A program made the translations under genes and the position numbers. The notes under the pieces are model-generated. The model was not told the DNA's origin and did not search any database. It worked only from the letters and a program-made list of their open reading frames with translations. A stretch of 64,000 nt of DNA from Bacteroidaceae bacterium (GTDB taxonomy: Bacteria > Bacillota > Clostridia > Lachnospirales > Lachnospiraceae): positions 13,416 to 77,415 of the forward strand of contig CAVFAT010000051.1 in assembly GCA_963620785.1 (NCBI GenBank), written 5' to 3'. Shown piece after piece: positions 21,336-57,660 of this stretch. Each line of letters begins with the position of its first letter. Within the stretch, counting starts at the first letter, position 1.

Positions 21336-22499
21336 TTATGAAATAGATATATATTCGGATTTTACCTGTGCTCTCTTGCCGTTATAAGTCATAAACATAT
21401 CCTCAACAAGATCACTTACCAGAATCCTTGCCTTAATTACATCCTTATCATTCGGATGGTTCCATGGCTGTCCGTGGAAAAAATAAGAAGCTGTAATCTT
21501 CTCTCCCTCTGCTGTCTCATAAATATAGGGATCCGGCATTTCTCCCGGTCTGATCAGCATCGGCTTTTCTCCTTCTTTCAAACCTGCCGGTCCAAATTCT
21601 TTTCCAACACAGGCAAACTGGCCGATTACATCTACATTTGCCAGCTCCAGGAAAAGCTTCAATGCTGCAAGCGTTGCCAAAGCCTCATTGGATCCGAAGA
21701 AGCCACCTCCGTAGGTGGTAAAAACAATCCCTATCGGTCTGTAATTGTCTGCTGACGGGCCTCCCGGGAAAGGACAGCTTCTCCGCCTCCACATGGCACC
21801 GATTCTCTTTTTGGGCGGCATGGCATCGGGTCCTCCCGGACCTCCTGCCTCTCCTGGAGGTGGCTTAATCGTATCGCTATTCGCCTGAAATCCATCGCCG
21901 GCATCAACCTGTTCCTGCACTTTGGATTCAAGCTCGCCGCCCGCTCCGAGAGAAAATACCTTATTGACAACAGTAAGCGGATATCCTGCTACAATCGGAG
22001 AGCCGAGTGCGATGACATCATAATCATCAAAATATAATTTTTCCTGCATGCCTTCCCAATCAGAGGCTTTCATGGTCATTCGGAAAAAAGTGACCTCCCA
22101 TTTGTAATGTAGAAAAGTTTCCTCCATGGCTCTGGCAATCTTCTCTGTATTTTTTGTCATGGTTGCATAGAGAATCAAAGCTCTCAGCTTCTTTGGCGAA
22201 AAAGAAAGATTCTTCAGCTCGTAGGACTCATTCTTCTTTCCTTCTTCCAAAATACAGCCCTCTCCCTTTACACTTCCTTCTTCATCAAAAGAAAAACTGA
22301 TCTGATGCAGTTTGTTATCCAATCCTGCTTCCACCGTGATTTCTTTCTCACGAACCACGATATTCCCCAACAGATCTGCTCCTCTGCTGCTGATAATCTC
22401 TCCTTCATATCCACGGTCTGTCTCTCTAAGCGCAATCACCATTTTTCTTTCCTTGCCTTCAAAACTGACCTGATAGGAATATTTACCGGCAAAATTCAT
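21336..22499 (-). CDS. Flavodoxin-like protein with an extra N-terminal domain and a Pro/Gly-rich insertion
   Basis: 387 aa from the ATG at 22499 (AAAGGAGG RBS). Flavodoxin-type segment ALILYATMTKNTEKIA. Insertion IKPPPGEAGGPGGPDAMPPKK. I do not recognise the first ~110 aa. Confidence 0.6.
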   Translation of the reverse strand: MNFAGKYSYQVSFEGKERKMVIALRETDRGYEGEIISSRGADLLGNIVVREKEITVEAGLDNKLHQISFSFDEEGSVKGEGCILEEGKKNESYELKNLSFSPKKLRALILYATMTKNTEKIARAMEETFLHYKWEVTFFRMTMKASDWEGMQEKLYFDDYDVIALGSPIVAGYPLTVVNKVFSLGAGGELESKVQEQVDAGDGFQANSDTIKPPPGEAGGPGGPDAMPPKKRIGAMWRRRSCPFPGGPSADNYRPIGIVFTTYGGGFFGSNEALATLAALKLFLELANVDVIGQFACVGKEFGPAGLKEGEKPMLIRPGEMPDPYIYETAEGEKITASYFFHGQPWNHPNDKDVIKARILVSDLVEDMFMTYNGKRAQVKSEYISIS

Positions 22500-22626
22500 T
22501 CTTTTCCTCCTTTCGCCTTGTCCTGCTTCTTTTTCTTTATCTTCAGTATAAAAGTCCAAAAAGCATCTGTATATTATCGTAAATGTTATTTTTTATTCAC
22601 ATTTTCTCCTATTGCATTTCTTTTTA

Positions 22627-24131: not shown

Positions 24132-25301
24132 TTACTGATGCTTAATTACCTTTCCATAATGCATTACAAAATCTACCTGACGGAATACAGAAAGATCTTC
24201 CTTCAGTTCTCCTTTAATTGCAATAAGATTGGCCAGCTTTCCAGTCTCAATGCTGCCCTGCGAATCCTCCAGACCACAGACATGTGCACTGTTAATGGTC
24301 GCTGCCTCAATCAGCTGCTTCATGGAAAGTCCTGCCTCCTGCATCAGCTCAAGCTCATGCACCGGAATTCCCTGCACGCTGTCATTTTCTGTCATTCGCA
24401 TGGTATCTGTTCCAAGTGCAACCTTTCCACCCTTCTGAACAAAACGTCTGACATTATCCACTGCATTTCTTTCCTGCTGGTGGGTATCGATTGCTGCCAT
24501 CTTTTCCAGCATTTCCTTCATTGCCGGAGGAAGTTCTCCGGGCGGAAGTGGCGGTCTTGGTGCATCGATGACTGCAAGTGTGGGAGTTACATACATGTTT
24601 TTCTTTACCATTTCTTCCAGCATGTCATCCTCAATCGGATCCAGGGACATGTGAGCCAGCTCCGGAACCCCTGCATCAATCAAAGACTGAATATATTCTG
24701 TATGCTGGATATGTACACCAAACCACATATTATTTTCCCTTGCAGCATCTGCCAGTGCCTTAAATTCCTCCGTGGACAGAACCGGCGTATTCGGATCCAT
24801 TCTTTCCATATCCGCTGCCGATTTAATGCCTGAGCAGCCAAGCTTCTTCATTCTTTCAACGGCTGCTCTTGCCTCCTCGGCTCCCTTTACCGCAATTCCG
24901 TTTTCCTTTCCCATCATCATATGGCCATAGCCATTCTCACAGGTAATGAACCTTCCTGCACTGACAACCTGCGCCCTGTCCGGCTGTGTCAGAGAATGAA
25001 TCCAGGAAAGAAATTCCTCCAAACTCTGATTACCGCCAAATCCCATATCTCTGACGGTGAGGACTCCGCCCATGGCCCATTCCTTTAAGGAGGTATCATC
25101 CATCGGCTCCATACCACTCACCAAATGCATATGGGCATCAAAAAAGCCCGGCATCAAGGTATATCCCTCCAGATCAATACTCTCATCTCCCATAAGATTC
25201 GATCCAATCTCCTGAATCATGCCGTCTTCTATCTTGATATCCTTCTTTTCCTGCCAGATATTCGTATCACAAACGATGGCATTTCGAATCACAATACTCA
25301 T
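24132..25301 (-). CDS. Amidohydrolase-superfamily metal-dependent hydrolase, substrate unknown
   Basis: 389 aa. N-terminal composite domain, then PGFFDAHMHL (HxH metal motif). GGAAGGGGGA RBS. Confidence 0.8.
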   Translation of the reverse strand: MSIVIRNAIVCDTNIWQEKKDIKIEDGMIQEIGSNLMGDESIDLEGYTLMPGFFDAHMHLVSGMEPMDDTSLKEWAMGGVLTVRDMGFGGNQSLEEFLSWIHSLTQPDRAQVVSAGRFITCENGYGHMMMGKENGIAVKGAEEARAAVERMKKLGCSGIKSAADMERMDPNTPVLSTEEFKALADAARENNMWFGVHIQHTEYIQSLIDAGVPELAHMSLDPIEDDMLEEMVKKNMYVTPTLAVIDAPRPPLPPGELPPAMKEMLEKMAAIDTHQQERNAVDNVRRFVQKGGKVALGTDTMRMTENDSVQGIPVHELELMQEAGLSMKQLIEAATINSAHVCGLEDSQGSIETGKLANLIAIKGELKEDLSVFRQVDFVMHYGKVIKHQ

Positions 25302-25455
25302 AAAATCCCCCTTCCTATCATTTCAAGCCCTAAATCATTGATTTTTAGACCTTTTCTTTTCATTTTATCACGCCATACTGTCACTCTGCCTTCATTCTAG
25401 ACTTTATAATTCATAATTTCTAATAGTATTATATTATTTTTTCATAACCGATGAG

Positions 25456-25688
25456 TTATAATATATCGTATCGCAAAGCGATACGATGTACAGCGGCACA
25501 TCGCGCTTTAGCGCGATCTTTCATGTGCCGCGTGTCTTATAATCTATCGTGCCACGAAGTGGTACGATGTACGAAGGCGCATCCTGCGATAGCAGGATCT
25601 TTCATGCGCCGTGAGTCAATATATCGTATCGCAAAGCGATACGATATGCAGCGGCACATCGCGCTTTAGCGCGATCTTTCATGTGCCG
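25456..25688 (+). repeat. Three tandem 77-81-nt units, each a conserved two-hairpin module; candidate structured RNA or ssDNA element of unknown class
   Basis: Units at about 25456-25530, 25531-25611 and 25612-25688. Hairpin A lies at 25465-25487, 25546-25568 and 25623-25645. Hairpin B lies at 25494-25530, 25576-25610 and 25652-25688. Unit 2 keeps both stems through compensatory changes. Confidence 0.85.
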
Positions 25689-25702
25689 AGAAAGGAATCT
25701 CT

Positions 25703-26629
25703 ATGGAATTATCACATTTAAAATATTTTCAGCTAACAGCCAAACTTCAGCATATTACAAAAGCTGCCTCCCAGCTTTATATCTCACAGCCGGCCCTTAG
25801 CAAAACAATCTCCAAGCTGGAACATGAGCTTGGTGTGAAGCTTTTTGACAGGGAAGGAAAGGGACTTTACCTGAATGAGTACGGGAAAGCTGTATTAAAG
25901 CATACCGAGCGGATTTTCTCTGAACTGGATGAAATGAAGAGAGAAATATCTGATATGAAGGACGGAACCTCCGGATCTCTCCGTATTGCAACCGTCTGGT
26001 CCTCTTCTAATCCCCTATGGCTGACCAGCAGTATCGGCAAATTTATGCCCCTTTATCCAAATATCCATATCCAGTATTTTAAAACCGAATTGGAGCGATT
26101 GGAAAAGCAGCTGACAGACGGAGAAATCGATATTGCCTTCTCTTCTGCTCCCCTGGCTTCTCCAACAATTGAATGGACCCCGCTTTTCTCTGAAAAAATC
26201 GGCATTGTTCTCTCTGACCGCCATCATTTTGCGAAAAGATTCTCTCTTCATATGATTGACCTGAAGGATGAAAAATTCTGTATTATGGATGTCAATTCGG
26301 ATTCCTCCAGACTGACCCTAGAACTTTGTCAAAAAGCACATTTTACACCGAATATCTGCTATTCTCTGGACAATCCCCTTCTGATTGCCTATGCACTGAC
26401 CAATGCCGATTGTGTTTCCATTATTTCCGAAAATGGCTACATACAGTCCCATAGTCAGGATAAGAATCTGGGGATTCCGGATGATAAGGTCTTCATCCCC
26501 CTTGAGGATGACTTTGCAAAAAGAACCTGCTATATGGGAACCCTGACAAAACGCTATCAGACAAAAGCCCAGCTTGATTTTATTGCAACCCTGAGACAAG
26601 CCATCGACTCAGTTAACAATGCGGGCTAA
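25703..26629 (+). CDS. LysR-family transcriptional regulator
   Basis: 308 aa. N-terminal wHTH LKYFQLTAKLQHITKAASQLYISQPALSKTISKLEHELGVKLFDR. Divergent from the amidohydrolase. Confidence 0.92.
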   Translation: MELSHLKYFQLTAKLQHITKAASQLYISQPALSKTISKLEHELGVKLFDREGKGLYLNEYGKAVLKHTERIFSELDEMKREISDMKDGTSGSLRIATVWSSSNPLWLTSSIGKFMPLYPNIHIQYFKTELERLEKQLTDGEIDIAFSSAPLASPTIEWTPLFSEKIGIVLSDRHHFAKRFSLHMIDLKDEKFCIMDVNSDSSRLTLELCQKAHFTPNICYSLDNPLLIAYALTNADCVSIISENGYIQSHSQDKNLGIPDDKVFIPLEDDFAKRTCYMGTLTKRYQTKAQLDFIATLRQAIDSVNNAG

Positions 26630-27682: not shown

Positions 27683-28285
27683 TTAATGATTCGTTCCTTT
27701 CAAGAAAGGAGCAATGTGCTTGTAAATAATAAAGGTTATCACAACGCTGATCATTTCCTTAATAAAGGTAAATGGTGCATTGAAAATAATCAAAGCCTCC
27801 AGGAGATTCTTCACACTCGGAAGAATTGCCTGATACATGGATACGATCGTTTCCATCGGCATAAAGGCTGTATATACCGGATATACAATAAAATAATTAG
27901 ACGGAATCGATACCAAGGCAGAAACAACTGCTCCTGTCAGAGCGCCGATCAAGGCTCTTGTTCTGGTCTTCTTATGCTTATAGATCAGTCCGGCCGGCAA
28001 TACGAACAGTGCACTCAGGATGAAGTTCGAGAGCTCGCCTACTCCGCCGGAAGATGTCATAAAAAGATGCAGAACATTTTTGATCAGGGCAATTACCACA
28101 CCACTGACCGGTCCCAAAGCAAAGGCGCCGATCAAAGCCGGCAGATCGGAAAAGTCCATCTTGATAAAAGCCGGCACGAAAGGAACATTAAACTCCAGGA
28201 ACTGAAGTACAAAAGAAACTGCAGCAAGCATCGCAGTCATTGTCATTCTGCGCACCTTACTGGTTTCATTTACTTGATTATTCAT
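27683..28285 (-). CDS. ECF-transporter substrate-binding S component (RibU-like sequence pattern; substrate not assigned)
   Basis: About 200 aa with 6 TM segments. FIKMDFSDLPALIGAFALGP resembles the RibU-type motif. Start set to the ATG at 28285 downstream of GGAGG. Lies 42 nt after the glyA stop. Confidence 0.75.
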   Translation of the reverse strand: MNNQVNETSKVRRMTMTAMLAAVSFVLQFLEFNVPFVPAFIKMDFSDLPALIGAFALGPVSGVVIALIKNVLHLFMTSSGGVGELSNFILSALFVLPAGLIYKHKKTRTRALIGALTGAVVSALVSIPSNYFIVYPVYTAFMPMETIVSMYQAILPSVKNLLEALIIFNAPFTFIKEMISVVITFIIYKHIAPFLKGTNH

Positions 28286-28327
28286 TATTCTCAAATCCTC
28301 CCCAGGATATTTGTTTTTTGGAAGTGC

Positions 28328-29569
28328 TTACTGAAGCGGATATTTATCTGTCAGTGTCTTGATGATTGCTTTCGCCGGCTCGATTCCTTCCTCGCCCTTC
28401 TTTACAACCATGGCGATTGCCTCTGCAACCTGATCAAAATCCTCTGCCTTCAGTCCTCTTGTTGTTGCAGACGGTGTTCCCAGACGGATACCGCTTGTTA
28501 CAAATGCAGACTTGGGATCATTCGGGATGGTATTCTTGTTGGCTGTAATATGAGCTGCATCCAGAAGCTTCTCTACATTCTTGCCTGTCAGCTCATAGGG
28601 TGTCAGATCCAGCAGCATAAGGTGATTGTCTGTTCCGCCTGAAACGATCTTCATATCTCTTGCGATCAGTCCTTTTGCCAGAGCCTGTGCATTATCAACG
28701 ATATTCTGTGCATATACCTTGAAATCATCACTCAAAGCTTCCTTAAAGCAAACAGCCTTTGCAGCGATCACATGCTCAAGCGGTCCTCCCTGAATGCCCG
28801 GGAATACAGCCTTGTTCAGCTTTACTTCATCTGCAAATTCCTGGCTGGAAAGAATGAGGCCACCACGCGGTCCTCTCAGGGTCTTATGTGTGGTAGTTGT
28901 GGTTACATGTGCATAGGGAATGGGGCTCTGATGAAGTCCTGTTGCTACAAGACCTGCAATATGTGCCATATCCACCATCAGATAAGCACCAACCTCATCT
29001 GCGATCTCACGGAAACGCTTAAAATCAATCGCTCTTGCGTAGGCACTTGCACCAGCAATGATCATCTTCGGCTTGCATTCCTTTGCAATACGAAGTACCT
29101 CATCATAGTCGATCAGTCCTTCCTCATTTACGCCATAAGGAACACAGTGGAAAAACATACCAGAGAAATTAACAGGGCTTCCATGAGACAGGTGTCCGCC
29201 ATGATCCAGGTTCATTCCCATATAGGTATCCCCCTGCTCCATCAAAGCAGTAAATACTGCCATGTTTGCCTGGGCACCGGAATGTGGCTGAACATTTGCA
29301 TAAGTGCAGCCAAAAAGTTCCTTGGCACGCTCAATTGCAAGTGTTTCGATCTCATCGATAACCTCACAGCCGCCATAGTAACGCTTTCCGGAATATCCTT
29401 CTGCATATTTATTGGTCAGAATGGTTCCCATTGCTCCCATCACACTGTGACTTACCCAGTTTTCAGAAGCAATCAGCTCAATATGGTCTGACTGTCTTTC
29501 AAACTCTTTGTCGATAAGATTGGCGATCTCAGGATCTGTAGCCTTTAATTCATCAAAATAGCTCATCAT
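28328..29569 (-). CDS. glyA: Serine hydroxymethyltransferase
   Basis: PLP-Lys motif [14 protein letters not shown]. Start moved to MMSYFDELK (ATG 29569) downstream of AGGAG; the longest ORF starts at 29635. Confidence 0.96.
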
Positions 29570-29655: not shown

Positions 29656-31455
29656 TCAGTTTTCTTTTTCTTCTGCTTCCTCAACACTGATGTAAAGTTC
29701 ATTCAGCTGTTTCTCATCAACCGGTGCTGGTGCGCCGCTCATCAGATCAGATGCATCCTTTACCTTCGGGAAGGCAATTACATCACGAATAGAATCTGCA
29801 TGAACGATATGCATAACCAGTCTGTCCAGACCATAAGCCAGTCCTGCATGAGGCGGAACGCCATACTTAAAGGCATTCAAGAGGAAACCAAACTGCTCAT
29901 AGGCATTTTCCTTGGAGAAGCCAAGTACCTCAAGCATTTTTTCCTGAATATCATCCTGGTGAATTCTGACAGAACCACCGCCAAGCTCCGTACCGTTTAA
30001 TACGATATCATAAGCTCTCGCTCTTACGGCACCCGGATCGGAATCAATCTTGTCCCAGTCCTCTTCCATCGGCATGGTAAAGGGATGATGCATAGCCATA
30101 AAACGGTTTTCCTCATCCGACCACTCCAAAAGCGGGAATTCTGTTACCCAGAGGAAATTGTACTGATTCGGATCCAGCAGATCCATCTGCTTTGCCATTT
30201 CCAGGCGAAGGGCACCCAGAACATCCCAAACCATCTTGTTCTTTCCTGCAGCAAAGAGAAGCAGATCTCCTGCCTTACCTTCCATCTTTTCAATGATAGC
30301 AGCAAGCTCATCCTCTGTCATAAATTTGGAGAAGGAGCACTTCTGGCTTCCATCGCTCTTCAGCTGGATATAAGCCAGGCCGTTTGCTCCATATCCCTTT
30401 GCGAACTCAACCAGCTTGTCAATCTGCTTGCGGCCCATGTCGCCTTTGCCGGAAACATTAATACCACGAACACTGCCGCCTGCCTCAACAGCACCTGCAA
30501 ATACACCAAAGTCACTGTCTTTTACCAGGTCGGAAATGTTGACCAGCTCCATGCCAAATCTTGTATCCGGCTTATCGGAACCGTAACGATCCATTGCCTC
30601 CTGCCAGGTCAGACGGGGAAGGGGGAGGGAGATATCAACACCCAATGTCTCCTTAAAGACATGCTGCATCAGTCTCTCATTGATATCCATAACATCCTCT
30701 TCATCTACAAAGGAAAGTTCCATATCAATCTGTGTAAATTCAGGCTGTCTGTCTGCACGAAGGTCTTCATCACGGAAGCATCTTGCGATCTGAATATAGC
30801 GATCATATCCGGAGCACATCAGAAGCTGCTTATAAAGCTGCGGTGACTGGGGCAGAGCATAAAAGCTGCCCGGATGCACACGGCTGGGTACAAGATAATC
30901 TCTTGCTCCCTCCGGTGTTGACTTCATCAGCATCGGGGTTTCGATCTCAAGGAAGCCTTCCTTCTCCATAAAGCTGCGCACCAGGTTCATTACCTTGCTC
31001 TTCATGAAGATATTTCTCTGAATATCCGGTCTTCTCAGATCCAGATAACGGTATTTTAAGCGAAGTTCATCCTTGGTTGTAATATTCTCTTCAATCGGGA
31101 AGGGAGGAGTCTCAGATTCAGAAAGGATCCGCAGGCTTTCCGCTACAATTTCGATCTCTCCGGTTTTCAGATTTTCATTGACTGCTCCGGCTCTTTTTGT
31201 AACAGTACCGACAATGGCAACCACAAATTCGCTTCTCAGCTTTCCAGCCTTTTCAAAGCCCTCTGTTCCGACATTGTTCTCATCAAATACAATCTGCAGA
31301 ATACCGCTTCTGTCTCTCAGATCGATAAAAATCAAAGAGCCCAGATTTCTTCTCTTCTGCACCCAGCCCATGACCGTGACCTTAGATCCGATCTCGGCAG
31401 CTGTCACCTCTGTACATCTGTGTGTACGTTTTAATCCGCGCATGGATTCTGACAT
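29656..31455 (-). CDS. aspS: Aspartate--tRNA ligase, bacterial type (long, with GAD insertion)
   Basis: 599 aa. Class II motif [18 protein letters not shown] and C-terminal GLDRL. Follows hisS as in the Firmicute hisS-aspS operon. Confidence 0.96.
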
Positions 31456-31503: not shown

Positions 31504-32769
31504 TCACTGTTTGTCAGGATAAAATTCAACAAATTCCTCATAACCCTGACTCTTCAGCTGTTCCTTCTGAAATTTTTTGTTTTTGTTCATTCTTGCAACC
31601 AATATCTGCTTACCAGCTGCTCTTTCCTCCTGTGCCTTGGCAAAAACCTCGCTCAGTCTCTCGGCCGGATACTTCTTGTCAATCAGATAAGCAGTCTTTT
31701 CCTTTTGACCCGGGATCTGGAAACCATTTTCCATGAGCAGAAGAATGATTCTCTCGAATCCAATGGAAAAGCCACAGGCCGGTACATTCTGTCCTGTGAA
31801 ATTGCCTACCATCTTGTCATAGCGTCCGCCGCCGCCACAGCTGCCGCCGAACTGAGGCATGGCAATCTCAAAGATGGTGCCGGTATAGTAGGACATACCT
31901 CTGACCAGAGTCGGATCAAAAACCAGCTCAAAGTCTGCTGCCTTTGTTGCATTTACACTATCCGCAATCTGTCTAAGGCTTTCCGCAACCTCTGCATCCA
32001 GATAATCCCCCAGCTTACCGGTCAGGAAATCAAGCCCCTCTCTGACTTCTTTGACATTTTCAAGACCTGTAAAGAGCTCCAGATATTTTTCTACGCCCTC
32101 TGCCTCATAACCGCTCTCCAGAAGTTCTTTTTTGACTCCGTCGAGACCGATCTTGTCCATCTTGTCCAGAATGATAAAGATGGCATCATAATCAGCTTCC
32201 GCAAATCCACTGTAGGCTGCCATAGCCTTCAGGATTCTTCTCTCATTGATTCGGATCTCAAATCCGGAAAAACCAAGCTTGCCAAGTGTTGTTGTTGTTG
32301 CCGTAATCAGCTCTATCTCAGCAAGATTGCTGGCATCTCCGATGATATCGATATCGCACTGCATGAACTGACGATATCTGCCTCTCTGGGGACGGTCAGC
32401 TCTCCAGACATTGCCCATCTGCAAAGCCTTAAAGGGAGATGGAAGCTCTGCTGAATGATTGGAATAATACCTTACCAGGGGTACTGTCAGGTCATAACGC
32501 ATACCGAAATCCACAACATCCGCTTCTTCCTTTGCCTCTGCTACATTCAGCTTCTCTCCTCTTTTCAGAACCTTGAAGATCAGCTTCTCATTTTCACCGC
32601 CCTGCTTATTGGAGAGATTTGCGATATTCTCCATACAAGGGGTTTCAATCGGTGTAAATCCGAAACTTCTGTAGGTTTCCTTAATCACAGACTGTACATA
32701 ATCACGCACTGCCATCTCCTCCGGCAGAATATCCTTCATACCGGTAACAGGCTTTTTATTTAATGCCAT
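31504..32769 (-). CDS. hisS: Histidine--tRNA ligase
   Basis: 421 aa. Contains RYDLTVPLVRY and GGGGRYD motifs. Confidence 0.95.
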   Translation of the reverse strand: MALNKKPVTGMKDILPEEMAVRDYVQSVIKETYRSFGFTPIETPCMENIANLSNKQGGENEKLIFKVLKRGEKLNVAEAKEEADVVDFGMRYDLTVPLVRYYSNHSAELPSPFKALQMGNVWRADRPQRGRYRQFMQCDIDIIGDASNLAEIELITATTTTLGKLGFSGFEIRINERRILKAMAAYSGFAEADYDAIFIILDKMDKIGLDGVKKELLESGYEAEGVEKYLELFTGLENVKEVREGLDFLTGKLGDYLDAEVAESLRQIADSVNATKAADFELVFDPTLVRGMSYYTGTIFEIAMPQFGGSCGGGGRYDKMVGNFTGQNVPACGFSIGFERIILLLMENGFQIPGQKEKTAYLIDKKYPAERLSEVFAKAQEERAAGKQILVARMNKNKKFQKEQLKSQGYEEFVEFYPDKQ

Positions 32770-55956: not shown

Positions 55957-57288
55957 TTAAGGTGTCAATCTGCTAAGGTCACGCGGGAAGAGAGATACCT
56001 CACGGACATTCTCTTCTCCAAGCAGCTCCATTGTAATTCTCTCAAGTCCAAGACCCAGTCCTCCGTGAGGCGGCATACCATGCTTGAACGCACTCAGATA
56101 CTGCTCCATACCTTCCTCTTCCATGCCACGTGCTTTGATCTTTTCGCTCATCATATTGTAGTCATGGATACGCTGACCACCTGTTGTGATCTCCACACCC
56201 TTGAAGAGAAGGTCAAAGCTCAGAGTATAGGTCGGATCTGTCGGATCATCCATTGCATAGAAGGGACGCTTCTTGGAAGGATAATGTGTTACAAATACAA
56301 AATCACTGCCGGTTTCTTCTTTATAATACTTACCGATCAAAAGCTCTTCCTCCGGCTCAAGATCATAAGGATTTCGGATCGCACGGTCATATTTCTCGGA
56401 AACATTCTTCTTTGCCTCATCGAAACGTACTGCCGGGATCTTTGATGCATCCGGGATCTCAATGCCCAGGATCTTAATCTCTCTTGCATAGTCTTTCTTC
56501 AGCAGTTCCATTGTATACTGAAGGAAGCCTGCCTCCATCGCCATAACATCCTCAAAGCTGTCAATGTATCCCATCTCAAAGTCAAGTGATACATATTCGT
56601 TCAAATGACGCTTTGTATTATGCTTCTCAGCACGGAATACCGGTGCAACCTCATATACTCTGTCAAAAACGCCAACCATCATCTGCTTGTAGAACTGCGG
56701 AGACTGCTGCAGGATTGCCGGCTTGTGGAAATATTCCAGCTTGAAAAGGTTTGCTCCGCCCTCTGCTGATTTGGCACCAAGCTTCGGAGAATGGATCTCT
56801 GTAAAGCCCTGCTCATGAAGGAAGTCACGGAAGCCTCTTACGATACCTTCCTGGATTCTGAATTTTGCACGCTCTCTGATATTACGAAGAGAAATCGGAC
56901 GATAGTTCAGCTTTGCCTCCAGAGAAGTTTTCATTTTCCATTTGCCGATCGGAAGAGGCATTGCCTCTGTCGGCTGGGAAAGAACCTTGATCTTAGTCAG
57001 TCTGATCTCGATACCGTTCGGCGCACGATCCTCTGCATGCAGGCTTCCCTCTGCCTCCAGAGTTGTTCCCTCATGAAGATCATGAAGATCAAAGTCAGTT
57101 ACACCCTCCTCAAAAACAGTCTGAATCAGGCCTTCTCTTTTTCTCAGTACAACAAAAGCCACATCTCCCATATTACGGATTGTGTGAACTGCTCCGTTTA
57201 CCTTAACGCTCTTTCCTTCAAAATCCCCTTCCAGGATCTGGGAAATCTCAAGGGTATCTTTTTCGTTTACACCTGTAATAAAATCCAT
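55957..57288 (-). CDS. aspS: Aspartate--tRNA ligase, archaeal/short type (probable non-discriminating AspRS feeding GatCAB)
   Basis: 443 aa. Lacks the GAD insertion. Class II motif FRAEKHNTKRHLNEY. It is the first gene of the T-box-controlled operon with gatCAB. A short asparaginyl-tRNA synthetase cannot be fully excluded by eye. Confidence 0.8.
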   Translation of the reverse strand: MDFITGVNEKDTLEISQILEGDFEGKSVKVNGAVHTIRNMGDVAFVVLRKREGLIQTVFEEGVTDFDLHDLHEGTTLEAEGSLHAEDRAPNGIEIRLTKIKVLSQPTEAMPLPIGKWKMKTSLEAKLNYRPISLRNIRERAKFRIQEGIVRGFRDFLHEQGFTEIHSPKLGAKSAEGGANLFKLEYFHKPAILQQSPQFYKQMMVGVFDRVYEVAPVFRAEKHNTKRHLNEYVSLDFEMGYIDSFEDVMAMEAGFLQYTMELLKKDYAREIKILGIEIPDASKIPAVRFDEAKKNVSEKYDRAIRNPYDLEPEEELLIGKYYKEETGSDFVFVTHYPSKKRPFYAMDDPTDPTYTLSFDLLFKGVEITTGGQRIHDYNMMSEKIKARGMEEEGMEQYLSAFKHGMPPHGGLGLGLERITMELLGEENVREVSLFPRDLSRLTP

Positions 57289-57365: not shown

Positions 57366-57660
57366 TAAAAAAATCCCGGAGCATAACTATATGCTCCGGG
57401 ACGGAATTACTGACTCATTCCGCGGTACCACCCGCATTGGGAATTGCTTCCCCACTCTTTTTGCTTAACGCGCATCCTACGTATCATCCTAATAAATAGA
57501 TCCTATATTTGTGTTTGTTCTTTACGCATTTAACAAAACAGGATTACCGTTCAGATGATCTGCTCCGGAGTGTTGCTTCTCTGCGCTCTTCTGAAATGCA
57601 CTTCCAGCCGATGATGCATTTTCTCTGTCAGCCTCTGCGTAGAAAGGTCTCCTTCTCAGC
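57366..57660 (-). promoter_or_regulatory. T-box leader (tRNA-sensing riboswitch) with terminator/antiterminator
   Basis: The minus strand contains the T-box sequence AATGCGGGTGGTACCGCG (plus coordinates 57421-57438). It is followed by the terminator TCCCGGAGCAT-N6-ATGCTCCGGGA plus TTTTTTT (57366-57401). Confidence 0.85.

Follow-up and report, generated by a model that had tools for sequence, protein, structure and literature searches.

Three head-to-tail copies of a two-hairpin unit of about 77 nt lie in the spacer between a divergent amidohydrolase gene and a lysR gene on the Lachnospiraceae contig CAVFAT010000051.1, of which we analyzed a stretch of 64,000 nucleotides (hereafter the window, with position 1 at its first letter). 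The reading that we favor, at about even confidence, is that these units are a strain-variable tandem array (minisatellite) of a clade-restricted repeat family that is transcribed as the lysR leader and acts on that gene in cis. The element looks like a new clade-restricted relative of the hairpin repeats known as repetitive extragenic palindromic (REP) and BOX elements, and not like a conserved riboswitch or small RNA. It is a new sequence family of a known bacterial repeat kind, with a very narrow distribution. The anatomy of the units, the covariation in their stems, the copy-number polymorphism, the lack of an array at orthologous loci and the occurrence of the unit at another site in a sister species were observed directly; that the array is transcribed, that its plus strand folds and that lysR is affected in any way, we infer.

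Anatomy of the array

Tandem Repeats Finder placed by far the strongest tandem repeat of the window at 25459-25688 (period 81, 2.9 copies, score 272), and a repeat search resolved it into three 71-nt copies at 25460-25530, 25541-25611 and 25618-25688, spaced by 81 and 77 nt, with identities of 100, 75 and 97%. Together with the reading of the hairpins, both searches bear out an earlier note on this DNA, which had proposed three tandem two-hairpin units. All three lie on the plus strand, and each runs from an A/T box through hairpin A, a 7-nt linker and hairpin B to a short tail. Hairpin A is a 23-nt palindrome whose 10-bp stem is capped by a loop of 3 nt. In hairpin B, an outer stem of 5 bp (GGCRC/GYGCC) surrounds an 18-nt inner stem-loop with 7 bp and a 4-nt loop, and a bulge of 7 nt, CTTTCAT, interrupts the 3' side. 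The units and their parts are as follows, with scores from a covariance model built from the units (R1).

25460-25540, plus strand: unit 1, type alpha, 81 nt, 102.4 bits
25465-25487, plus strand: unit 1 hairpin A, ATCGTATCGC-AAA-GCGATACGAT
25495-25529, plus strand: unit 1 hairpin B, GGCAC-ATCGCGC-TTTA-GCGCGAT-[CTTTCAT]-GTGCC
End of unit 1, plus strand: tail CGCGTGTCTTAT, running into the next A/T box
25541-25617, plus strand: unit 2, type beta, 77 nt, 94.6 bits, with tail GTGAGTC
25546-25568, plus strand: unit 2 hairpin A, ATCGTGCCAC-GAA-GTGGTACGAT, with one G·T pair
25576-25610, plus strand: unit 2 hairpin B, GGCGC-ATCCTGC-GATA-GCAGGAT-[CTTTCAT]-GCGCC
25618-25688, plus strand: unit 3, type alpha, the terminal unit, 102.3 bits
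25623-25645, plus strand: unit 3 hairpin A, extendable to 12 bp at 25621-25647
25653-25687, plus strand: unit 3 hairpin B

The compensated changes and the single G·T pair that had been described for unit 2 are present. Units 1 and 3 do differ by two substitutions, as had been reported, and the further statement that both lie in the linker fails for one of them, a G to A change at 25646 that lengthens hairpin A. Between the end of the array at 25688 and the lysR ATG at 25703 there are 14 nt, again as first described. The absence of a U-tract behind any unit is likewise upheld; no terminator follows the array, and weak matches to a terminator pattern occur only inside hairpin B.

Single units are predicted to fold with -34 to -35 kcal/mol (z = -5.7 to -6.1 against dinucleotide shuffles), and the whole array reaches a predicted z of -9.3. 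A degenerate hairpin-A pattern, with 0.00 matches expected in shuffles, has the array as its sole site in the window. Perfect hairpins of at least 9 bp occur only twice elsewhere in the 64 kb.

Covariation in the stems

The locus was retrieved from other assemblies by means of its LysR, SnoaL and amidohydrolase proteins, giving a comparison set of 17 units from ten related contigs. Metagenome-assembled genomes with this locus include GCA_963615425.1, GCA_963626635.1, GCA_963591215.1 and GCA_963618335.1, and the sister species called B below is represented by ERZ27279214. The alignment A2 holds the ten distinct canonical units. All of its 220 stem cells (220/220) form standard pairs on the plus strand, with two-sided changes at 8 of the 22 pairs, and none of 500 shuffles matched the observed pairing or covariation. 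When the 3' partners were slid by one to three columns as a control, pairing fell to 9-45%. For hairpin A alone, 11 units including the divergent lineage and the sister-species copy described below carry double changes at 5 of the 10 pairs. The claim that the stems are kept by compensatory substitutions, first made on the three window units, therefore stands and is strengthened by the alleles of other strains.

Conservation is concentrated at the feet of the stems. The feet ATCGT/ACGAT of hairpin A and GGC.C/G.GCC of hairpin B are nearly fixed. Turnover affects the upper stems as well as the loops, the linker and the bulge. The loops read AAA, GAA, GTA, TTTA or GATA, and the linker is variable too. 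The bulge, earlier called invariant, is constant as CTTTCAT within the window only; it is TGTAAAT or CATAAT in other strains and ATA in the solitary unit of the sister species.

One-sided stem changes in well-formed units amount to four events, and all of them give G·T on the plus strand. They are found in hairpin A of window unit 2, in hairpin A of L029, in the inner hairpin of L032 unit 1 and, as one allele shared by L025 unit 3 and L026 unit 2, in hairpin B. Since a G·T pair on the plus strand is an A·C mismatch on the minus strand, these four events are suggestive, not decisive, in pointing to the plus strand as the one that would fold. They lend some support to the plus-strand fold that had been deduced earlier from a single wobble.

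Strain-variable number and types of units

The flanks of the array are 98.4-99.5% identical to the window in L025, L026, L027, L009, L010 and L028, and the count of units varies from one to at least three across the strains compared.

Three units: window, L025
Two units: L026, L027
Contig ends within the array, as expected for a repeat: L009, L010, L028
One degenerate unit: L029, L030, L031, in a sub-lineage at 86-90% DNA identity
Two units, the first with an enlarged hairpin B: L032, in a sub-lineage at 86-90% DNA identity

Hairpin B of the first L032 unit has two inner hairpins within its outer stem, a three-way junction with a predicted energy of -52.7 kcal/mol. Within the window lineage the last unit is always alpha, the type of window units 1 and 3, and the penultimate unit is either beta, the type of window unit 2, or gamma, whose hairpin B reads GGCGC-ATTGCAC-GAA-GTGCAAT-[TGTAAAT]-GCGCC. 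Window unit 2 recurs as the first unit of the two-unit array of L027. Additionally, modules are mixed: unit 2 of L025 joins the common hairpin A of its neighbor to the beta hairpin B of window unit 2. Such mixing between units indicates concerted evolution, that is, conversion between units, and conversion together with gain and loss of units is clearly at work.

No reading frame is conserved among the alleles, and a coding reading of the array was therefore rejected. A 72-aa open reading frame (ORF) through the array, used as a query, gave no candidate in a word-index search. An exhaustive HMMER search returned six matches; the four that were read are repeat-containing proteins, two of them cysteine-rich and, as we take them to be, Sushi/CCP-like, and all six were treated as noise.

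Position between the LysR dyad and the Shine-Dalgarno sequence

The array is bounded on its left by a LysR-type dyad and on its right by the ribosome-binding region of lysR, as set out in the list below.

24132-25301, minus strand: divergent amidohydrolase gene, a probable LysR target; context and not part of the repeat
25410-25437, plus strand: promoter-like site TTCATA-16-TATTAT, 9 of 12 consensus matches, upstream of the dyad, a candidate promoter
25444-25459: LysR-type dyad ATAACCGATGAGTTAT (ATAAC-N6-GTTAT), the left boundary of the array, conserved in orthologues
25689-25702, plus strand: ribosome-binding region of lysR, AGAAAGGAATCTCT, with the Shine-Dalgarno sequence AAAGGA at 25691-25696
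25703-26629, plus strand: lysR, 308 aa, with HTH_1 and LysR_substrate domains

All orthologous lysR genes examined, with LysR identities as low as 70%, are preceded by an ATAAC-N6-GTTAT dyad, whose last bases in the window overlap the first TTATAAT box (25456-25462). LysR-type regulators generally bind dyads of this kind, and by this analogy the dyad is a probable LysR operator, serving both autoregulation and the target gene. The right half of the dyad in array-bearing lineages (CCGGTGAGTTATAAT) resembles the inter-unit tail (CCGTGAGTCAATAT).

The array itself is absent upstream of the lysR orthologues of sister species, whose LysR proteins are overall 66-85% identical to that of the window. 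These species keep the order amidohydrolase, lysR and snoaL, or have lysR with other partners, and R1 finds no unit at the site upstream of lysR in any array-free locus. The dyad is followed there by a sigma-70-like promoter (10-11 of 12 matches) and then by an unrelated leader of 45-80 nt.

Array-free, LysR identity 84-85%: L001-L004, L011
Array-free, LysR identity 70%: L005-L008
L001 2923-2951 and L011 460-488: promoter TTTACA-17-TATACT
L005 2938-2966: promoter TAGACA-17-TATAAT

The promoter that follows the dyad in these relatives is missing from the array-bearing lineages, which suggests that transcription of lysR was rewired when the repeat arrived. From this comparison the array appears to have replaced the ancestral lysR promoter and leader, between the operator dyad and the Shine-Dalgarno sequence, and at least part of it would then lie in the lysR 5' leader whichever start is used. 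The site at 25410-25437 is the sole scored plus-strand promoter-like site upstream of lysR, and the same site is present in L029. If it is used, the whole array is transcribed.

A location directly upstream of the Shine-Dalgarno sequence, strong predicted folds and covariation on the sense strand would also be expected of a dedicated cis-regulatory RNA, such as a tandem riboswitch or a protein-binding leader, or of an independently transcribed tandem small RNA. The bulge of the last unit even offers CUUUC, which is complementary to GAAAG of the Shine-Dalgarno region, and a competing pairing is conceivable. We nevertheless regard this class of explanation as highly improbable. The orthologous loci lack the element, an outcome that the earlier note, which had listed a multi-copy 5'-UTR regulatory element among its candidates, named beforehand as speaking against it. 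The loops, linker and bulge, where a ligand or protein pocket would be sought, vary between strains, and the copy number varies freely from one to at least three. An Rfam 15 gathering scan of the whole window reported no family, and permissive Rfam scans of the array and variant units gave noise, the best match being Gut-1 on the minus strand with 18.9 bits against a gathering threshold of 50; a tRNA and tmRNA scan of the region gave nothing. In the predicted minimum-free-energy fold of unit 3 with the start region, the Shine-Dalgarno sequence occupies the loop of a weak 4-bp stem and is unpaired to the array, and CUUUC is missing from the terminal units of L029 and L032. On these two grounds a switch that sequesters the Shine-Dalgarno sequence through CUUUC-GAAAG was rejected. 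A riboswitch or conserved leader RNA was set aside on the absence from orthologues, the variable unpaired bases, the lack of a curated family match or an expression platform, and the free Shine-Dalgarno sequence of the predicted fold. The tandem small RNA, another earlier candidate, is unsupported, no terminator following any unit.

Another explanation would be a double-stranded operator array, in which a dimeric protein, LysR or another, would occupy ATCGT-N13-ACGAT and/or GGCRC...GYGCC and be titrated or bound cooperatively near the lysR promoter. The outer 5 bp of hairpin A are indeed the most conserved part of the unit, the first hairpin A is centered about 22 bp from the dyad, and symmetric half-site changes in L032 (ATCAT...ATGAT) keep the palindrome. 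Recognition of a duplex would not need the 13-bp center, however, yet this has stayed perfectly self-complementary through at least five independent double changes, and the nested stems, the asymmetric bulge and the three-way junction of L032 make no sense for it. Since the hairpins are also unlike ATAAC-N6-GTTAT, and orthologous LysR loci work without them, we consider an operator array quite improbable. The narrower proposal of hairpin A as the activation-binding site for LysR was also rejected, in view of its position on the lysR side of the dyad, its dissimilarity to the dyad and its absence in orthologues.

A second site and the strand likely to fold

Sister species B has a complete unit that stands alone, which BLAST and R1 identified on the minus strand of L001 (1361-1438; 39.6 bits with R1) and which is also present in L002 and L004. 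On one side of it is the terminator of the amidohydrolase gene and on the other the next gene, which codes for an ABC transporter. This solitary unit has the same hairpin A as the window, a linker (GAAACGAAG) resembling the one in L032 unit 2, and a tail (CCGTGAGTCAATA) that matches the window inter-unit tail. Hairpin B keeps the architecture with another sequence, GCC-gc-ATCGTGTTA-CTGCA-TAACACGAT-ata-GGC. R1 additionally reported a hairpin-A-like core at L001 4906-4958 (28.3 bits), at the center of a long inverted repeat. The solitary unit indicates a repeat family with more than one genomic site, and not only local duplication. The copies amount to a single locus across the 64 kb of the window and to two sites within 7 kb of the sister species.

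The long inverted repeat measures about 130 nt, lies downstream of snoaL (about 4875-5010 in L001) and is also found in L002, L003 and L004; its center reads TATCGTGCCGC-GTA-GCGGTGCGGTATA and is hairpin-A-like. In L001 the amidohydrolase-lysR-snoaL module has this inverted repeat on one side and the solitary unit on the other, both on the same strand. Some sister-species strains carry a relaxase/MobC (NikA-like) segment, at L002 4472-5420 and L003 3599-4547, which starts about 50 nt past the long inverted repeat (breakpoint L001 5059). L001 has rpsI/rplM in this place, indicating that a mobilizable element inserted beside the locus.

The second site bears on what kind of molecule would fold. 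The window array lies on the lagging strand, with a GC skew of -0.12 to -0.21 throughout, and the solitary unit of L001 lies on the rpsI/rplM strand, most likely the leading strand. Both full sites are sense to the downstream gene, yet on opposite replication strands, and this polarity mildly favors an RNA-level reading over one based on the replication strand or single-stranded DNA.

The alternative to be weighed here is a selfish or neutral palindromic DNA repeat, similar to REP elements, to MITEs (miniature transposable elements with inverted repeats) or to IS200/IS605 ends, whose hairpins act as single-stranded or cruciform DNA or merely persist. Compensatory changes would then arise by template switching that copies one arm, and the lysR leader would be a tolerated insertion site. 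We hold this explanation to be possible but doubtful. Most of the loops are C-GNA-G triloops (GAA, GTA, AAA), and the C-GNA-G triloop is a classic, very stable DNA mini-hairpin, d(GCGAAGC). The combination of fixed stem feet and variable upper stems is that of hairpins read by structure-specific DNA enzymes, and insertion, replacement and copy-number polymorphism are all present. The solitary unit of L001 stands directly after an intrinsic terminator, a place where little transcription is expected. Moreover, inverted repeats are perfected by template switching at quasi-palindromes, an established mutational mechanism (PMC7202029).

The polarity of the two sites, opposite for replication and the same for transcription, nevertheless argues against a DNA repeat, as does the strand of the G·T pairs: it is the lysR-sense strand, complementary to the lagging-strand template, and the most exposed single strand would carry A·C. 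The units are all direct and do not alternate, no GTAG/CGTC tag stands beside the hairpins (criterion of PMC3733652), and copies are sparse, with one locus in 64 kb. No transposase, integrase, relaxase, REP-associated tyrosine transposase (RAYT) or cas gene was found among the window ORFs scanned.

Relation to known repeats and RNA arrays

The closest documented analogue is the pneumococcal BOX element, which is confined to a few close species, has a tandem number of boxB that varies between strains, is predicted to form stem-loops when transcribed and affects the expression of neighboring genes (PMC3049150). Both elements are small intergenic repeats of a few closely related Firmicutes, with a head-to-tail module of about 45-80 nt in strain-variable number and no coding capacity of their own, and both are predicted to form stem-loops when co-transcribed and thought to alter neighboring expression. 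The feature most like BOX is the strain-variable tandem array of an internal module, with one, two or at least three units. The present array differs in beginning at a LysR dyad and ending at a Shine-Dalgarno sequence, without boxA and boxC caps or terminal inverted repeats. Its unit combines two hairpins that are unrelated to each other, of which hairpin B is nested and bulged, and is not known to resemble BOX in sequence. It was seen at two to three sites, whereas a pneumococcal genome holds more than 100 BOX copies.

REP elements, with their assemblies known as bacterial interspersed mosaic elements (BIMEs) and REPINs, share other features with the array, being extragenic and often clustered imperfect palindromes of 20-40 nt with compensated stems (PMC2817692, PMC3733652, PMC3116915). 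Hairpin A, at 23 nt, is such a palindrome. A transcribed REP can also work as an RNA hairpin, such as one that stabilizes mRNA. They carry an unpaired GTAG/CGTC tag (PMC3733652), however, whereas the feet of the array hairpins are flanked by TAT/ATG, AGC/G and similar letters. REP clusters alternate in orientation and the array units are direct in every allele; REPs usually number more than 100 copies per genome and are accompanied by a RAYT gene, and the 64-kb window covered here has one locus and, among the ORFs scanned, no RAYT; and REPs lie mostly downstream of genes, in contrast to an array in a 5' leader. GTAG does occur in array units, solely inside some loops (GCGTAGCG). Among the roles that the earlier note had put forward, a REP/BIME-like repeat in a 5' untranslated region thus fits best, in keeping with the solitary unit at another locus of the sister species; REP/BIME in the strict sense does not fit, for want of the tag and of alternating orientation.

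Intergenic minisatellites of the type called mycobacterial interspersed repetitive units (MIRU) or variable-number tandem repeats (VNTR) consist of head-to-tail units of 40-100 nt, are polymorphic between strains and cause assembly breaks. The array resembles them in its head-to-tail intergenic units, its polymorphic copy number and the contigs that end within it. Neither hairpins nor covariation define a MIRU, and its units tend to preserve a frame, whereas what the array preserves is pairing and not a reading frame.

ToxI, the RNA of type III toxin-antitoxin systems, is likewise a set of tandem structured-RNA repeats directly upstream of a gene and occurs in Lachnospiraceae and other Firmicutes (PMC3401426). 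Its repeats are about 34-45 nt long and are followed by a terminator and then a gene for a ToxN/AbiQ-type endoribonuclease, in contrast to units of 77-81 nt, no terminator and lysR downstream in the array. A ToxI-type antitoxin array was therefore rejected by unit size, by the lack of a terminator and by the HTH_1 and LysR_substrate domains of the downstream gene. A clustered regularly interspaced short palindromic repeat (CRISPR) array was also rejected: the segment between copies of hairpin A is a conserved self-complementary hairpin, the Rfam scan gave no CRISPR-DR match on the array, and the ORFs scanned include no cas gene. Integron attC sites were discarded as well, as the units abut without cassettes, no integrase gene was found among the window ORFs scanned and the RYYYAAC...GTTRRRY core is absent from the units.

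Proposed origin and consequences

The favored reading, a clade-restricted repeat amplified in the lysR leader, implies the following course. The element would have entered the stretch that separates the LysR operator dyad from the Shine-Dalgarno sequence of lysR, displacing the ancestral promoter and leader. Its units would have been amplified by slippage or unequal exchange, and afterwards gained, lost and homogenized by unequal recombination or slippage together with gene conversion. The array would be transcribed as a lysR 5' leader of stable stem-loops, and the unit tails would supply TATAAT boxes. This leader may influence the stability or processing of lysR mRNA, copy number altering its length, and a cis effect on lysR expression is what we infer to be the most likely consequence. 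Pairing on the sense strand could result from selection on the folded transcript or from palindrome-perfecting template switching, and the stem feet, ATCGU/ACGAU and GGCRC/GYGCC in a transcript, may be recognized by a partner.

Several observations weigh against this reading. The evidence for dispersal is thin: a single sister species provides it, with one solitary unit and one partial match that are both no more than 4 kb away from the same gene cluster. R1, run without filters, returned no unit in the 64-kb window beyond the three of the array. The promoter scan found no -35 partner at 16-18 nt for the TATAAT boxes of the units, and a promoter inside each unit was rejected as unsupported for this reason. 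The degenerate terminal units of the L029/L032 lineage carry a G·G mismatch, and that of L029 additionally a C·A mismatch, so that the constraint on pairing is not absolute. Between the window and L025 the array diverges by 5.8% and the lysR-snoaL spacer by 4.8%; because this unconstrained spacer diverges about as fast, the array is not demonstrably hypervariable, and the notable point is that its changes never break a pair, not how often they occur.

Counting on the same side are the pattern scans, as nothing beyond chance matches came from GTDB genomes, JGI metagenomes and IMG/VR. A strict unit pattern had 0 matches in GTDB genomes. A looser pattern, combining the hairpin-A feet with GGCRCAT, had 5 matches listed in GTDB genomes, 7 in JGI metagenomes and 0 in IMG/VR, none of them palindromic and all attributable to chance; as this pattern misses units of the L001 type, which have GCCGC in place of GGCRC, absence from these genome and metagenome sets is weak evidence. 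In IMG/VR the hairpin-A pattern had 0 matches and the linker pattern 30 chance matches, and with blastn the array had no match at E values up to 1 among PLSDB plasmids or INPHARED phages. By these sequence searches, the element is not detectably present outside this small Lachnospiraceae clade.

A stronger version, which we think unlikely, is that the unit is an undescribed Lachnospiraceae RNA module, mobile and amplifiable, that is folded on the sense strand by selection, has feet bound by a partner and tunes lysR and the amidohydrolase through its copy number. If true, the unit array would be a structured-RNA "contingency locus."

To our knowledge, descriptions of small hairpin repeat families (REP, BOX, RUP, Correia) come mostly from Proteobacteria and a small number of pathogens, with next to nothing on such families in uncultured gut and rumen Lachnospiraceae. 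A new conserved regulatory RNA would have been more remarkable than this element. The locus offers, all the same, a clean natural series of an empty site and one, two and at least three units. It can serve as a test case for whether RNA selection or DNA-level palindrome correction lies behind the compensatory evolution of palindromic repeats, and for the modulation of adjacent-gene expression by repeat copy number. It also carries a warning, in that tight covariation inside one species can mimic a riboswitch-like signal.

Further features of the window

The genes of the window, among them pur, pyr, addAB, clpX and gatAB and those for aminoacyl-tRNA synthetases, are those of ordinary core chromosome. 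By its HisRS homologues, the organism belongs with uncultured Lachnospiraceae. Two ORFs near the locus have no Pfam match, at 21336-22559 (minus strand, 407 aa) and at 27686-28642 (plus strand, 318 aa). The second overlaps, on the opposite strand, a 203-aa ORF at 27683-28294 that sits at the position of an energy-coupling factor (ECF) transporter gene called in related contigs, and because of this overlap it is probably not a real gene.

The Rfam gathering scan of the window reported no T-box leader despite three aminoacyl-tRNA synthetase genes, at 29656-31455, 31504-32769 and 55957-57288. One of the two other long perfect hairpins, of 12 bp and reading TCCCGGAGCATA-ACTA-TATGCTCCGGGA, lies at 57374-57401, within a 436-nt region upstream of the last of these genes, which encodes a class II synthetase on the minus strand.

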